DNA from: Bacteroides sp. | Lineage (GTDB): Bacteria > Bacteroidota > Bacteroidia > Bacteroidales > Bacteroidaceae | Assembly (NCBI GenBank): GCA_021202275.1 | Contig: JAJQDI010000025.1 | Span: 8,112 to 72,111 of the forward strand | Reading direction: 5' to 3' | Length of the DNA: 64,000 nt | Shown here: positions 8,573 to 43,395 of the stretch, in pieces | How the letters are laid out: every line of letters starts with the position of its first letter | Numbering within the stretch: position 1 is the first letter of the stretch | Notes under the pieces: generated by a model | What the model saw: only the letters and a program-made list of their open reading frames with translations | Databases searched by the model: none | Told to the model about the DNA's origin: nothing | Program-made: the position numbers and the translations under genes

Positions 8573-10594
8573 ATGAACTACCTAGTAAAAAAACTTTTGT
8601 ACATCATCTGCCTGATCTGCACTACCGCATTACAGGCACAACAACTACGCCCGGAAATATTCTCTCTGATAGACCTCAACTATCCGGGACTGGAACAAGT
8701 AAGATCCCTGCATCAGGAAGGCAACGACGTTGCAGCGGCAGAAGCATTGCTTGCCTATTACCGCCAGCGCAGTCACATCAACCACCCCGAAGTAAATCTC
8801 AACAACGTAACGATCAGCAAACAGGAGCAACAATGGGCCGATGACGCGCTGGAGCATACATTCTTTGTACACAAAGGCTATCAGCCCTCTTACAACTACG
8901 GTAAAGACATCAACTGGCAATACTGGCCCATCAAAGACAACGAACTCCGCTGGCAGTTGCATCGCCACAAATGGTTCTCCCCGATGGGAAAAGCCTACCG
9001 GGTGACGGGCGACGAAAAATATGCCCGGGCATGGGTACACCAATACATGGATTGGATCCTCAAAAACCCACTTACAGGAACAAATAAACAACCACACAAA
9101 CTCATCAGCAGCGGCGAAGTGAAAAGAGACGCGGAGAATGCACGTTTTGCCTGGCGACCACTGGAGGTAAGTCACCGTCTGCAAGACCAGACAGGTCAGT
9201 TCCTCTACTTCCTGTCCTCTCCTTCCTTCACACCGGAATTCCTGACCGAATTCCTGGTCAATTACCACCGTCATGCCCTGCATATCTCAGCCAATTATTC
9301 CGACACAGGCAATCATTTGCTGTTCGAAGCCCAACGCATGATCTACGCAGGTGCTTTCTTTCCCGAATTCAAAGAGGCCGGATCGTGGAGAAAAAGCAGT
9401 ATTGAGGTGCTGAACCGGGAAATCCACCTGCAGGTTTATCCCGATGGCGGACACTTTGAACTCGACCCACACTACCACCTGGCCGCGATCAACATCTTCT
9501 GCAAAGCACTCTTTATGGCCGATGTGAACGGATTCCGGAATGAATTTCCAGCCACTTACCTGGATACCGTAGAAAATATGATTCTTTTCTACATGAACAT
9601 CTGCTTCCCGGATTACACCAATCCTTGCTTCAGTGATGCCAAACTGGGCGATCGCAAAAATGAGCAGAAAAACTACCTGATCTGGAACCGGATATTTCCG
9701 GACAACCAGCAGATCCGTTATATGGGTACAGCCGGAAAAGAAGGAGTACCTCCCCACCAGCTTTCCAGGCCCTTCAAACACTCCGGATTCTTCGTTTTCC
9801 GCAACTCCTGGAAAGAAGAAGCCACGATAATGGTACTGAAAGCCGGACCAAAGGGGTTCTGGCATTGCCAGCCGGATAACGGAACATTCGAATTGTGGTT
9901 CAACGGTCGCAATCTCTTCCCCGACTCCGGGGCGTATGTCTATGCCGGAAATGAAGTGATGGAATTGCGTAACTGGTTCCGCCAGACCCGGGTGCACAAC
10001 ACCCTGACTCTGGACGGACGCAACTTAGAAACGACCGAATCGGTGTGCCTGCACTGGCAGGGAGAGGGAGAGGTACAGACCTTAGTCACTGAAAATCCCT
10101 CTTACGAAGGATTGCGACACCGACGCACTGTCTTCTTTGTAGATAATACCTATTTCGTGGTGGTAGATGAAGCCATTGGCAACGCCACAGGAGAAGTCAA
10201 TCTGAACTATCAATTGTGCGAAGGGGAGGTAAAGATCGACGCAGACCGTCATATCCTGCTTTCACAATTCGAAGGCGACAGCAATGTCAAACTCCAGTGT
10301 TTCGCGGAGAAAGGAACTACCCTGCGTGAAGAAGAGGGCTGGCGTTCTACCGCCTACCGCCAACGTGTGGAACGCACAGCCGTCTCTTTCAATACTCCCA
10401 AAAAGCAAGGAGATACCACCCGATTCATCACTGTGATCTATCCGGTGAAAGATGCAGCGCAGGCGCCTCAGCTATCTGCTAAGTTCACAACAAAAAAATT
10501 CAGTGAGAACCGGGTAGACGTAGAGGTGAAAGTAGACAATAAAAGCCGCAAACTAAGTTGCGAATGGCAAAGAGATTTACGATTTACTGATTGA
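8573..10594 (+). CDS. hepC: Heparin-sulfate lyase, heparinase II/III family (PL12)
   Basis: Signal peptide. Motifs DNELRWQLHRHKW, NHLLFEAQ, FELDPHYH, WHCQPDNGTFEL, HNTLTLDG. Heparin PUL context. Confidence 0.9.
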   Translation: MNYLVKKLLYIICLICTTALQAQQLRPEIFSLIDLNYPGLEQVRSLHQEGNDVAAAEALLAYYRQRSHINHPEVNLNNVTISKQEQQWADDALEHTFFVHKGYQPSYNYGKDINWQYWPIKDNELRWQLHRHKWFSPMGKAYRVTGDEKYARAWVHQYMDWILKNPLTGTNKQPHKLISSGEVKRDAENARFAWRPLEVSHRLQDQTGQFLYFLSSPSFTPEFLTEFLVNYHRHALHISANYSDTGNHLLFEAQRMIYAGAFFPEFKEAGSWRKSSIEVLNREIHLQVYPDGGHFELDPHYHLAAINIFCKALFMADVNGFRNEFPATYLDTVENMILFYMNICFPDYTNPCFSDAKLGDRKNEQKNYLIWNRIFPDNQQIRYMGTAGKEGVPPHQLSRPFKHSGFFVFRNSWKEEATIMVLKAGPKGFWHCQPDNGTFELWFNGRNLFPDSGAYVYAGNEVMELRNWFRQTRVHNTLTLDGRNLETTESVCLHWQGEGEVQTLVTENPSYEGLRHRRTVFFVDNTYFVVVDEAIGNATGEVNLNYQLCEGEVKIDADRHILLSQFEGDSNVKLQCFAEKGTTLREEEGWRSTAYRQRVERTAVSFNTPKKQGDTTRFITVIYPVKDAAQAPQLSAKFTTKKFSENRVDVEVKVDNKSRKLSCEWQRDLRFTD

Positions 10595-10832
10595 CGATCG
10601 GAGACGCTTCGCTATTTACGATTTACGGATTTACGATTTACGATTGATATTACATAGATTATAAATAAAGATATGTATCACGATTATATCACTAATCCAG
10701 GGAAATTGTTTAAAGTGAAGTTAATCCCTTCAAAAGAGTTACTTCAATCGTAAATCGTAAATCGTAAAATCGTAAATAGCGAAGCGTCCCCGATTGTCAA
10801 ATCGTAAATAGCGAAGCGTCAAATCATAAATC
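10574..10832. repeat. Heptamer inverted-repeat cassette H3 between PL12 and sulfatase
   Basis: Left arm 10574-10648, right arm 10744-10832. The 22-mer GACGCTTCGCTATTTACGATTT (10603-10624) has exact reverse complements at 10767-10788 and 10799-10820. Right arm abuts the sulfatase ATG. Confidence 0.92.
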
Positions 10833-25570: not shown

Positions 25571-25727
25571 GATTTACGATTGGACTATTTACGATGTACG
25601 ATTTAAATTTCATCGTTGAATGATGCCGTTTTTACTGTTGCTTGACTTACCGGTAGCTCTTGTCTGAAAATAGAATAAGCAGGATAGGTAATATCAATCG
25701 TAAATCGTAAATAGTCCAATCGTAAAT
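25571..25727. repeat. Heptamer inverted-repeat cassette H5 downstream of eda
   Basis: 25572-25605 versus reverse complement of 25694-25727: 32/34 match, both arms carrying the GATTGGAC TATTTAC variant. On the - strand the arm starts 3 nt after the eda TAA. Confidence 0.92.
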
Positions 25728-25731
25728 ATCT

Positions 25732-26403
25732 TTATTTTCTCGCCTCAGCAATATAGCCGAACGCTTCCTGACATTTAGCAGTTACCCATGCCCAATCGCC
25801 GGCTTCAAGTACCTCTTTGGGGAAAAGGTTAGAACCCATACCCACACAGGTGACTCCCGCTTTGATCCAGGCGGTCAGATTTTCCTTAGTTGGTTCTACC
25901 CCACCGGTTACCATCAGCATAGACCAGGGCATCGGGGCTTTTACATTCTTCACAAAAGAAGGTCCACCCACATTACCTGCGGGGAATACCTTGCAAAGAT
26001 CACAACCCACTTCCTGAGCAAAACCGATCTCAGAAACCGAACCGCATCCCGGAGTATAAGGGATCAGGCGACGGTTACAGATCTTTGCGATCTCCGGATT
26101 GAACAACGGACCTACAATGAAATTTGCACCCAATTGGATGTAAAGCGCCGCAGTAGCAGGATCTACGACAGAACCGATACCGATGATCATATCGGGACAC
26201 TCTTTGGCTGCCCATTTGACCAGTTCGGCGAAAACGTCCTGTGCGAAATCACCTCTATTGGTGAATTCAAATGCGCGGACACCCCCTGCATAGCAAGCTT
26301 TTACTACATTCTTTGCAACTTCCGCGTCTTTATGATAGAAAACAGGTACCATTCCGGTACTTGCCATTGCGTTGAGAACCTGGATTTTATTAAATCTTGA
26401 CAT
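25732..26403 (-). CDS. eda: 2-keto-3-deoxy-6-phosphogluconate / 4-hydroxy-2-oxoglutarate aldolase
   Basis: [38 protein letters not shown]. Adjacent to kdgK. Confidence 0.95.
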
Positions 26404-26409
26404 GATTAT

Positions 26410-26915
26410 ATTTACGATTTACTGATGTACGATGTACGATTTATTTTTCACTTTAAACTATAGGGTTCATCACTGTTTCTGGCGAAGAGTAAGAATGGCA
26501 CTCACTATAATTTTATACAATTCCTGAGCTTCGCGCATTAGCCCTGCCAGTTTTTCCTCCGGGATCATTCCACTTTCAATAATCATTTTCAGCCAATGAA
26601 TGGTTTCATCCAGTTCCTCCTCTACTGTTTTAAGCTTATTAAGAAAATCCTTGCCTGACTTAGCCAGACAAGCGGCTCTGTAATTAGCTGCCGGAGATGT
26701 ACCGGATCGAATAATCTGCCGGGCTATGGCATAGCCTGCAAGTGTAGAAGGTAGATGATCTACCATTTTAATGATCCTTAGAGAAAAAGTCTTCAGCCTC
26801 AACTTCAACTCCTCACGATTCATCGCCATATAGTATATATATTATCTACGATTTACCGCTCTACGACATAGAATGTATTTCCAAATCGTACATCGTAAAT
26901 CAGTAAATCGTAAAT
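26410..26915. mobile_element. Heptamer inverted-repeat cassette H6 carrying a four-helix-bundle gene
   Basis: Arms 26410-26442 and 26883-26915 are reverse complements at 32/33 positions. The cassette fills the kdgK-eda gap. Mobility is inferred. Confidence 0.75.
26470..26829 (-). CDS. Four helix bundle protein (TIGR02436 / 23S rRNA IVS protein-like, Avd fold)
   Basis: QIIRSGTSPAANYRAACLAKSGKDFLNKLKTVEEELDETIHWL is the family signature; 119 aa. Confidence 0.92.
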   Translation of the reverse strand: MAMNREELKLRLKTFSLRIIKMVDHLPSTLAGYAIARQIIRSGTSPAANYRAACLAKSGKDFLNKLKTVEEELDETIHWLKMIIESGMIPEEKLAGLMREAQELYKIIVSAILTLRQKQ

Positions 26916-26919
26916 CCCT

Positions 26920-27963
26920 TTATCTGCTCACCCGACCAGATCCATCGCCCTTCATCAGGTTTTCCACCTCAGCGATAGTTACCAGGTTGAAGTCTCCGTA
27001 GATGGTATGTTTCAGACAGGAAGCAGCTACCGCGAATTCAAGTGCTTTCTGGTCGTCGGCAGGATAAGCGATAAGACCGTAGATAAGACCACCCATGAAA
27101 GAGTCACCACCACCTACACGGTCTACGATGTGCGTGATATCGTATCTCCTGGACATCTTCAGAGAACCGTCTGAGTAAAGCACGCCGCCCCATGTGTTGT
27201 GGTTGGCATTGATCGCACCACGCAGTGTCACGATCATCTTCTTGCAACGGGGGAATTTCTGCATCATCTGTGTACATACGGATTCAAATTCGGCAGCATT
27301 CACCTCTCCGTGAGTAGCCGTTACGTCAAATCCTTCGGGTTTGATACCGAATACTTTTTCGCAGTCTTCCTCATTACCCAGGATCACATCACAACCTTCT
27401 ACCAGCGCAGGCATCACTTCATCCGCGGTCTTACCGTATTTCCAGAGATTCTTGCGGTAGTTGAGGTCGCAGGAAACCGTTACACCCATTTCATTGGCAG
27501 CCCGGATCGCCTCCAGACAAGCATCGGCAGCACCTTGCGAGAGAGCAGGAGTGATACCGGTCCAGTGGAACCACTGCGCGTCTTTCAACACCTCTTTCCA
27601 GTCGATCATTCCCGGTTCGATCGTAGCAATCGAAGAGTGGGCACGGTCGTAAACCACCTTGGAAGCACGGTTCACCGCACCGGTCTCCAGGAAATAGATA
27701 CCAACTCGGTCTCCACCACGTACGATGTGGTTTACTCCAACGTTGTGAGAACGCAGATCCATGATACAGGATTCGGCGATGTCATTTTTGGGAAGACGGG
27801 TAACAAATTCAGTTTCCAGTCCGTAGTTGGACAACGATACGGCTACATTGGCTTCACCTCCGCCAAACGTAGCATTAAATTCTTTGGCCTGTGAAAATCT
27901 CAGGTAACCCGGAGTAGCCAGACGAAGCATGATCTCTCCAAAAGTAACAACTTTCTTTCCCAT
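26920..27963 (-). CDS. kdgK: 2-keto-3-deoxygluconate kinase (PfkB family)
   Basis: VVTFGEIMLRL, FGGGEANVA, DLNYRKNLW, DRVGGGDSF. Confidence 0.95.
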   Translation of the reverse strand: MGKKVVTFGEIMLRLATPGYLRFSQAKEFNATFGGGEANVAVSLSNYGLETEFVTRLPKNDIAESCIMDLRSHNVGVNHIVRGGDRVGIYFLETGAVNRASKVVYDRAHSSIATIEPGMIDWKEVLKDAQWFHWTGITPALSQGAADACLEAIRAANEMGVTVSCDLNYRKNLWKYGKTADEVMPALVEGCDVILGNEEDCEKVFGIKPEGFDVTATHGEVNAAEFESVCTQMMQKFPRCKKMIVTLRGAINANHNTWGGVLYSDGSLKMSRRYDITHIVDRVGGGDSFMGGLIYGLIAYPADDQKALEFAVAASCLKHTIYGDFNLVTIAEVENLMKGDGSGRVSR

Positions 27964-28188: not shown

Positions 28189-28190
28189 GA

Positions 28191-28415
28191 GATTTACGAT
28201 GTACGATTGAGATTACATGATGGAGTATTCTCATGCTAATAACGTGAAAAGATGTATGATGGAACTATTTATCAATAAGGGGGACAACCATAGTACTATA
28301 AATAAGGTAAGGAAAGATAGGATGTATAATGGACTTTAGTGTATGGTTTTTATTCAGGAAAAGACAAGGAAGGAATATAAATCGGATATGGTAAATAGTT
28401 AAATCATAAATCGTA
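28191..28415. repeat. Degenerate heptamer cassette H7
   Basis: GATTTAC GATGTAC GATTGA at 28191-28210; eroded GTAAATAGTTAAATCATAAATCGTA at 28391-28415. Confidence 0.6.
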
Positions 28416-42969: not shown

Positions 42970-43328
42970 AGCAGTCAGACGGTTTGTCGCTCACAGGATC
43001 TGTGGGAGGAAAGTCCGGGCAACACAGAGCACCCTACTTCCTAACGGGAAGCTGTCCGTGAGGGTAGAGCAACGTAGAAGAAAAGAACCGCCGTTTTCCT
43101 GGAGGAAACGGTAAGGGTGAGAAGGTGGGGTAAGAGCCTACCAGTCTTATGGTGACATAAGGGCTGTACGTCTTAGGGGTTGTAAGGTCATGTATACCGA
43201 CGTTAAGAGGGCTGCTCGCCCCATGTCGGAGGGTAGACCGCTAAAGTGGAACGGTGACGTTTCACTCAGATAAATGACAAACGCCCTGCTTGTAGGGAAC
43301 AGAACCCGGCTTACAGGCTGACTGCTTT
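42970..43328 (+). ncRNA. rnpB: RNase P RNA (bacterial type A)
   Basis: GAGGAAAGTCCGGGC, GGGTAAGAGCC, AACAGAACCCGGCTTAC. Ends pair (AGCAGTCAG / CTGACTGCT). -7 box TATCTTTG just upstream. Confidence 0.97.
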
Positions 43329-43395
43329 TTTTATTGTTTTATAGGGAACCGGTCCAAACTCCCCGGAGCCTGCAATTGTTTTATCTACTTCATGA

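Follow-up and report, generated by a model that had tools for sequence, protein, structure and literature searches.

The window analyzed here, a stretch of 64,000 nucleotides, contains on its minus strand the genes kdgK (26920–27963), which encodes a PfkB-family 2-dehydro-3-deoxygluconokinase, and eda (25732–26403), which encodes a KDPG/KHG aldolase (NF005499, E = 3e-113). A single cassette of 516 nt (26404–26919, minus strand) takes up everything from the kdgK stop codon to the eda start codon. Read on the minus strand, the kdgK TAA is followed by AGG, a 33-nt arm, a 16-nt spacer, a degenerate arm, an ORF, a second 33-nt arm, 6 nt, and the eda ATG. The 5′ arm (26883–26915) begins 3 nt past the kdgK TAA and is composed of heptamers (in sense order GAUUUAC, GAUUUAC, U, GAUUUAC, GAUGUAC, GAUU), and the distal 3′ arm (26410–26442) terminates 6 nt upstream of the eda ATG; these outer arms are 97% complementary, with one U–C mismatch, and are separated by 440 nt. 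The degenerate arm proximal to kdgK (26844–26866) is the local hairpin partner of the 5′ arm, with 23 nt paired at 83% against 26893–26915 around a loop of 26 nt. The ORF (26470–26829) encodes a 119-aa four-helix-bundle protein and lies on the same strand as both host genes. The sequence, the ORFs, and the inverted-repeat and profile matches place each of these elements where a sequence-only reading of this DNA had located it. The neighbors of the locus encode a GD_AH dehydratase, a LacI regulator, a PfkB kinase, an aldolase, a GerE regulator, and a Peptidase_C11 protein. With up to two mismatches allowed, the window has 36 occurrences of the heptamer dimer GTAAATCGTAAATC, where 0.63 would be expected; this number was not attained in any of 100 shuffles. 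Pairs of inverted heptamer arms that enclose no gene are found at 25571–25730, where an element with an interior of ~95 nt abuts the eda stop codon; at 28191–28412, in the divergent spacer between kdgK and the LacI-regulator gene; at 2437–2730, with arms of 37 nt; and at 10574–10832, with composite arms made of heptamers and a AGCGAAGCGTC module.

The 119-aa protein matches PF05635 (23S_rRNA_IVP; 56.2 bits against a cut-off of 33.8, E = 4.4e-15) and TIGR02436 (85.6 bits against a cut-off of 24, E = 2.4e-24), families that abound in Bacteroidota, cyanobacteria, and other phyla and to which, as far as we know, a function has been assigned only in the setting of diversity-generating retroelements. 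With a pI of 9.5 the protein is basic, its conserved start is probably M3, and the nearest solved structure is PDB 2RLD (E = 1.3e-15), an entry with five chains; its profile matches include no recognized catalytic domain and no known catalytic fold, and an exact-sequence look-up returned no match. Avd is a pentameric, basic, nucleic acid-binding partner of a polymerase. In fold and family the protein is homologous to bAvd (PDB 4DWL; PMC10053308), consistent with the resemblance of PF05635 to Avd. However, the surroundings of the locus are not those of a diversity-generating retroelement, as neither a reverse transcriptase nor a template/variable repeat pair nor a target gene lies nearby. Across the whole genome the TIGR02436 gene is present in a single copy. 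Because the family ORF is intact in 85 of the 85 homologues examined and evolves with dN/dS values of 0.03–0.15, we conclude that the cassette ORF is functional and kept by purifying selection.

We compared the junction in 28 relatives with an eda homologue, in 22 of which kdgK lies directly upstream. The spacer measures 13–104 nt and contains no ORF in 17 of these 22 relatives, in contrast to the 516 nt found here. An insert of 486–509 nt with a homologous ORF (60–61% identical) is present in only three of the 22, two of which belong to the same genus (L013 and L016) and one to another family (L022). The genomes L013 and L014, from two species, form a filled and empty pair, the former with a 486-nt cassette and the latter with an 18-nt spacer (AAAAATAATCATAAGAAA); flank identity is 98.3% over 1000 nt and 98.7% over 673 nt. 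Since a third species (L015, 95%) has an empty spacer similar to that of L014, the junction without a cassette seems to be the ancestral one; no clean target-site duplication was found at the L013/L014 pair. The sequence-only reading had proposed that the ORF was inserted rather than metabolic, and these junctions uphold that proposal: by comparison with them, the 119-aa ORF is an insertion that lies outside KDG catabolism. We also searched the relatives for the gene at this junction without arms and found that every gene-bearing relative has inverted arms. The arms of the L013, L016, and L022 inserts are built from GTAAATT/GTACATT units, in contrast to GTAAATC/GTACATC here; therefore, both arms have changed together.

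The same organization recurs at other loci. Of 12 other loci in relatives, 10 have the TIGR02436 gene between inverted arms of 29–46 nt composed of 7-mer (sometimes 8-mer) units, and the unit sequence varies from locus to locus among the 12. In a wider comparison, flanking inverted repeats score at least 16 in 67 of 95 loci against shuffle maxima of 8–13, with a period of 7 in 54 of the 67 and of 8 in the other 13. The order stop–arm–ORF–arm–ATG between co-oriented genes, which are tightly coupled at these junctions, holds in 76 of 85 close homologues. Cassettes are found between kdgK and eda at 24 loci, in Bacteroides salyersiae, B. nordii, Prevotella, Palleniella, and Paludibacteraceae, and elsewhere between the genes for the two methylmalonyl-CoA mutase subunits and at the nqrE–nqrF and pheT–yebC junctions; further junctions involve another PfkB kinase gene together with a LarA-like gene and one for a pdxB-like dehydrogenase. 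Each junction type is common to several species. The arms follow the protein in their composition, as all proteins at least 57% identical to the 119-aa protein are associated with units of the ATTTACN, ATGTACN, or ATTGACN type and those 26–35% identical are associated with other units. The two arms of one element resemble each other more than they resemble the arms of other elements, both in this genome (25.7 vs. 17.8) and among the cassettes of different genomes (20.2 vs. 11.5 for matches to the own arm and to other arms). Arrays of the flavor that a cassette itself carries are ~2.8 times commoner than arrays of foreign flavors when the 5-kb flanks of 60 cassettes are examined, and GTAAATT dimers number 11, 15, and 4 in genomes with GTAAATT-armed cassettes compared with 0–2 in genomes that lack the four-helix-bundle gene. 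A full-text literature search retrieved no description of such a package of arms and a PF05635 ORF in operons.

Comparisons of synonymous divergence separate the history of the cassettes from that of their flanks. For L013 and L016, dS is 0.70 in kdgK and 0.84 in eda but 0.053 in the cassette. Their flanks show 15–16 differences per 120 nt, whereas the cassettes differ at 13 of 493 aligned columns, a whole-heptamer indel of 7 nt included, and the ORFs differ by four substitutions, all of them synonymous (dN = 0). The near-identical tract extends from 1–2 nt past the kdgK stop codon to ~1 nt before the eda ATG. The same contrast is seen for L088/L089 (flanks 1.7 and 1.9, cassette 0.055), L094/L117 (flanks 0.70 and 0.45, cassette 0.012), and L093/L113 (flanks 2.2 and 1.9, cassette 0.28); in these four species pairs the cassettes are 7–40 times younger than their flanks by synonymous divergence. 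The reverse pattern is found for L076/L113, L076/L086, and L086/L113, in which flank dS is 0.3–0.6 and the cassettes are saturated, with dN of 0.16–0.37. That cassettes are far younger than their flanks in some pairs and far older in others indicates that whole cassettes have been exchanged laterally between species at orthologous junctions, and, with dS contrasts in both directions, the genealogy of the cassette is therefore decoupled from that of its host. Ordinary homologous recombination via the flanks or the arms could explain some or all of these exchanges. In addition, metagenome-assembled genomes are the source of the majority of the comparison loci. The exchanged tract of L088/L089 takes in ~38 nt of the upstream gene, and the divergence between L076 and L113 begins within the 5′ arm; since tract boundaries lie at or close to the cassette ends without always being exact, an element-specific mechanism is inseparable from arm or flank recombination. 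The gene table of the locus contains no transposase, integrase, or reverse transcriptase nearby, and the arms of the wider repeat family described below have neither a transposase nor an integrase between or beside them. These data also bear on the view that the ORF is an ordinary accessory gene of the KDG operon flanked by repeats that arose by chance. The recurrence of the gene between kdgK and eda at 24 loci from several families is what such a view would lead one to expect; nevertheless, we find it scarcely credible, as the gene is absent from most kdgK–eda junctions, the same cassette type occupies at least 10 unrelated junction types, the arms are far above chance, and the age of the cassette is decoupled from that of its flanks.

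Within the species, a second assembly (L139) has a cassette that is 99.1% identical, compared with 97.8–98.4% for the flanks, and because of this similarity we take the cassette in L139 to indicate vertical inheritance. Metagenome contigs from runs X1 and X2 contain the reference cassette, and in contigs from runs X3 and X4 the flanks are 97–98% identical and the cassette interior aligns only partly, at 82% or less. Two candidates for the divergent X3/X4 allele, P0010 and P0016, were set aside as database homologues from other species. Some of these observations might be expected of an inverton, with the inverted repeats as the sites between which the ORF is flipped, given that the repeats enclose a segment of ~440 bp and that the X1/X2 contigs appear to hold the interior of the neighboring gene-less element (25604–25695) in reversed orientation, where assembly ambiguity is possible. 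We nonetheless regard flipping of the ORF as highly improbable: the ORF is co-oriented with both neighbors in 76 of 85 loci, the X1/X2 contigs and L139 cross the cassette colinearly and in the reference orientation only, and there is no recombinase gene nearby. Joints in Logan contigs of the "skips 440" kind, considered as a sign of DNA excision, were traced to paralogous short hairpins with the same arms, such as that at C24:272003.

The arms of the cassette belong to a repeat family that is dispersed throughout this genome. Arms of the same heptamer number about 440–486 and include 114 convergent pairs and 212 solo arms, and the exact 14-mer GTAAATCGTAAATC occurs 153 times in this genome, whereas none of 40 relatives has more than one copy. 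The 33-mer arm of the cassette equals the family consensus, with 10 exact copies, 39 copies within 1 mismatch, and 120 within 3. This consensus includes an extra T and a fourth unit, GATGTAC, in a defined unit order, and this structure sets the family arms apart from free-running microsatellites. Strains differ in arm length by units, as illustrated by a 7-nt indel and by a 15-nt module (GATTTACGATTTACT) that is added in the X1/X2 strains to an arm of the 28191–28412 member. An all-against-all search assigns 68 of 106 gene-less interiors to one noncoding homology cluster (230–310 nt, 68–76% identity), which bears no relation to the ORF and contains a GC-rich palindrome with 61 copies genome-wide. 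In whole-genome searches with the protein (tblastn) and with the cassette interior (blastn), no decayed copies of the ORF were detected in the gene-less elements beyond the arms, and Rfam assigned no known RNA family to the elements. With respect to gene context, 63 arm pairs lie between tandem genes, 22 between convergent genes, and 5 between divergent genes; an arm next to a gene end mostly falls within −3 to +4 nt of the stop codon, and the gap to a gene start is looser (0–138 nt). The four-helix-bundle gene is the only unit-size coding cargo between family arms, other apparent cargo being just housekeeping genes between neighboring elements and spurious frames that cross repeats. From these matches we conclude that the gene-less elements form a lineage-specific, MITE-like family and that the cassette arm is the consensus of their terminal repeats.

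This finding can be read in two directions. In one, the arms are the ends of the cassette; in the other, the arms are a host REP-like hairpin, and the ORF core landed in a pre-existing loop in the manner of rRNA intervening sequences (IVSs) in helix loops. Prior hairpins of this kind would account for the abundance in this genome of short gene-less hairpins that have the same arms (a 16-nt loop at C24:272003, for example), for the identity of the cassette arm to the family consensus, and for interiors that appear to be swappable, with divergence that starts inside the arm (L076/L113 and the X3/X4 contigs). We judge this second reading improbable all the same, given that the young tract of L013/L016 contains both arms entirely, that the arm unit tracks the protein subfamily across families and orders, and that relatives with armed cassettes show no genome-wide burst. 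If the arms are instead the ends of the cassette, as we favor, then two kinds of mobile repeat invite comparison. Like MITEs and transposons with terminal inverted repeats, the family has conserved terminal inverted repeats common to many dispersed copies; unlike them, it shows no clean target-site duplication (L013/L014), and no transposase is found beside its arms. Bertels and Rainey are said to have described, in 2011, a REPIN–RAYT system of REP doublets together with a single-copy, flanked, transposase-like gene; RAYT is a HUH/Y1 nuclease. The present system is similar in having a single-copy gene between inverted copies of a repeat of which hundreds are dispersed as intergenic hairpin doublets, and in having a lineage-specific repeat flavor, with the burst confined to this genome. 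It differs from RAYT in that the protein is a 119-aa four-helix bundle without known catalytic residues and in that the arms are heptamer arrays, not a REP palindrome.

A published counterpart with the same anatomy is the IVS of 23S rRNA, of which ORF-bearing examples are found in Coxiella burnetii, Leptospira, Brucella, and Xanthomonas (PMC4990558). In Coxiella the IVS is an insert of 428–444 nt that contains an S23p (PF05635) ORF, has tandem heptamers in its arm region, and is closed by a terminal 28-bp stem, within which RNase III cleaves it (Warrier et al. 2016, PMC4990558). The kdgK–eda cassette resembles these elements in protein family (PF05635/S23p), in size class (a 440-nt interior, or 506 nt with arms), in the tandem heptamers of the arm region, and in a long terminal stem (33 bp at 97%), which its inverted repeats are predicted to close in both the minimum free energy (MFE) and the centroid structures. 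It is also patchy in distribution, as are the IVSs, which have been proposed to be selfish or once mobile (PMC4990558). Unlike the 23S rRNA IVSs, which lie in helix 25 or 45, the cassette lies in an mRNA, at an operon junction from the kdgK stop to the eda start. Its ORF is intact and under purifying selection, whereas that of the Coxiella IVS is decaying and probably untranslated (PMC4990558); cutting by RNase III has been demonstrated for the Coxiella IVS and would be expected by analogy for the cassette. Lateral exchange of the cassettes is documented here by the dS contrasts. Rfam detected no rRNA in the window and probes detected none in the assembly, and an IVS within this genome's own 23S rRNA was accordingly dropped as a candidate.

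Folding of a 561-nt transcript predicts the long-range arm stem in both the MFE and the centroid structures (−166.4 kcal/mol, z = −5.24), and the long stem folded in isolation has a predicted energy of −44.7 kcal/mol. The genome encodes an RNase III with the motif ERLEFLGD and a dsRBD, and RNase III processing of the cassette transcript is plausible on the basis of these predictions. The cassette might be primarily an mRNA intervening sequence, in which, just as in 23S rRNA, RNase III cuts the stem, frees the ORF RNA, and separates the kdgK and eda messages, with spread a secondary matter. The dominance of the 33-bp stem in the predicted ensemble, the encoded RNase III, the cutting of homologous rRNA elements by RNase III inside such stems (PMC4990558), and the placement of cassettes on the sense strand of operons are all in line with this possibility, which we consider unlikely but worth serious attention. 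Against it, arm mismatches show no wobble excess, and 22 gene-less pairs lie between convergent genes with arms that abut the stop codons, where no single spanning transcript is needed. The mismatch counts, from loci that are phylogenetically nonindependent, are 50 G–U vs. 82 A–C in cassettes and 43 vs. 51 in gene-less pairs; because the loci are related by descent the test is weak, and it fits complementarity kept at the DNA level or by copying better than selection on a sense-RNA helix.

The sequence-only reading had also drawn attention to an alternative short hairpin and had suggested that the RNA adopts two states. The 5′ arm and the proximal arm are indeed predicted to form a good local hairpin, at −31.5 kcal/mol and z = −7.5, and the long stem is thermodynamically sound as well, but the hairpin is species specific. 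Among 60 armed homologous cassettes the proximal arm is absent from 58, including those of L145 and L143, the closest relatives from other species, which have the same kdgK type, and it is present only in this species (including L139) and in L022. It traces to an extra, partial copy of ~28 nt of the distal arm. Given its absence from 58 of 60 cassettes and its origin as a partial copy, we ruled out the proximal arm as a feature of the class; we regard it as a local peculiarity and not as part of a switch for which the class is designed. A two-state switch in which the 5′ arm alternates between its proximal and distal partners to control expression of eda or of the ORF would be consistent with the strength of both hairpins and with a distal arm that stops 6 nt short of the eda ATG, yet the same absence, even from L145 and L143, and the resemblance of the proximal arm to a partial duplicate of the distal arm lead us to consider it quite improbable.

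Heptamer arrays are also found apart from rRNA. In Xanthomonas, (GGGAATC)n, and in Nostoc, (GGGGAYT)n, form arrays of about four heptamers that are found genome-wide but only in intergenic DNA (Rehm et al. 2015, PMC4692102). When on the coding strand, an array follows a stop codon by at most 50 bp, and when on the noncoding strand, it sits upstream of an ORF; 70–75 convergent inverted pairs are among these arrays, most of which are transcribed (PMC4692102). They are G rich and have been read as quadruplex formers, and no gene family or mobile element has been linked to them (PMC4692102). The arms of the genome studied here obey the same placement rules. In contrast to the Xanthomonas and Nostoc arrays, however, the GATTTAC unit cannot form a G4, the arms have a defined consensus order of 33 nt and are not a pure repeat, and they bound a shared interior of ~250 nt and match the arms of the genome's only PF05635 gene.

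We consider it probable that the kdgK–eda element is an IVS-type four-helix-bundle cassette, a laterally exchanged insert whose arms are functional ends, and that the same ends bound the MITE-like family. According to this explanation, the cassette would be a discrete insert of ~500 bp in which a PF05635 gene lies between heptamer terminal inverted repeats of ~33 nt and which fills the gap from stop to start. The arms would be the cis-acting ends behind gain, replacement, and spread, and would act via hairpin or cruciform DNA or via arm–arm recombination, in conjunction with some enzyme. The cassette would lack a promoter of its own and would be read within the operon transcript, in which the arms are predicted to close the 33-bp stem, with a cut by RNase III expected by analogy with the 23S rRNA IVSs. 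The short kdgK-proximal hairpin may be a species-specific by-product; because it would form first during transcription, it may keep the eda start region free.

A more ambitious proposal, which we offer tentatively and think considerably more likely to be wrong than right, is that the four-helix-bundle protein is the sequence-specific trans partner of its own arms. The cassette would then be autonomous and the ~110 gene-less elements its nonautonomous, MITE-like dependents, in a relationship similar to that of REPINs and RAYTs but built on a fold for which no nuclease activity is known, and the same system would underlie the 23S rRNA IVSs and the heptamer arrays of Xanthomonas and Nostoc. To our knowledge, neither the 23S rRNA IVSs nor the intergenic heptamer arrays have found an explanation in decades, and the locus joins both with PF05635/TIGR02436 proteins in one genome. 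Relative to the literature searched, this analysis adds quantitative evidence for lateral exchange of gene plus arms at precise operon junctions and a natural case in which the terminal repeat of one gene copy is exactly that of a gene-less burst confined to one lineage. A mechanism, if found, would be a new way of placing DNA cleanly between cistrons. The system is testable in cultivable Bacteroides, as B. salyersiae DSM 18765 and B. nordii JCM 12987 carry the cassette between kdgK and eda.

The kdgK and eda genes on either side of the cassette, the four-helix-bundle open reading frame with its inverted heptamer arms (26404-26919, - strand), differ in their apparent ancestry. The kdgK protein (26920-27963) is only 49-54% identical to the sampled kdgK proteins of the same genus, and matches its counterparts from two other families (loci L022 and L019) at 80-83% identity; identity to kdgK of L145, a close relative of another species, is 79.5% at the nucleotide level. 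Unlike kdgK, eda is typical of the genus, with identities of up to 83%. The kdgK-eda operon looks, from these sequence comparisons, like a mosaic with its seam at or near the cassette.

The cassette also appears to vary between closely related strains. In two metagenome runs that contain this species (X3 and X4), one contig covers the whole junction between eda and kdgK. Its flanks match the window at 97-98% identity, but the cassette interior (26443-26882) can be aligned only at 26564-26715, with 82% identity. Judging from this alignment, a strain in X3/X4 that is nearly conspecific seems to have a divergent allele of the cassette at this site. Two further runs (X1 and X2) differ from the window at neighboring gene-less elements, which belong to the genome-wide repeat family with arms of the cassette type and no open reading frame. 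The interior of the element that follows eda (25604-25695) appears in reversed orientation in X1 and X2 contigs; either the segment between the arms has truly inverted, or the de Bruijn graph was ambiguous at the inverted repeat. The arm at 28190 has an additional 15-nt module, GATTTACGATTTACT, in the X1/X2 strains, and arms therefore lengthen or shorten by whole units between strains.

Repeats are also present in other kdgK-eda spacers. The spacer of L028, a junction in the genome of a relative (G034), is 206 nt long and has AAGGTGG-type heptamer arrays at either end, in direct rather than inverted orientation, enclosing a masked (N) stretch. The spacers of L005, L007, L008, and L009 are short (59-78 nt) and contain GAGAGTTGA-type repeated units together with a small complementary CAACTC; such spacers may represent what is left of another arm flavor, or a miniature form of it. 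At other cassette loci (L074, L112, L116, L123, and others), the last codons or the stop codon of the upstream gene lie within the 5' arm, with gene-end-to-arm distances of -3 to -13, and the insert therefore provides the C-terminus or stop.

The longer gene-less elements share an interior of ~250 nt in which a GC-rich palindrome, GAGACGCACGGCGTGCGTCTC, is nested, with 61 exact copies genome-wide. Such elements are located at C24:129336-129854, C10:195180-195796, C9:37272-37762, and C21:27920-28394 in this genome (G000), and in the window the palindrome region lies at ~2590-2640. An Rfam search gave no match for the GAGACGCACGGCGTGCGTCTC-bearing gene-less interior. Elsewhere in the window, bacterial RNase P RNA class A was identified by Rfam search at 42971-43329 (+ strand; 242.9 bits).
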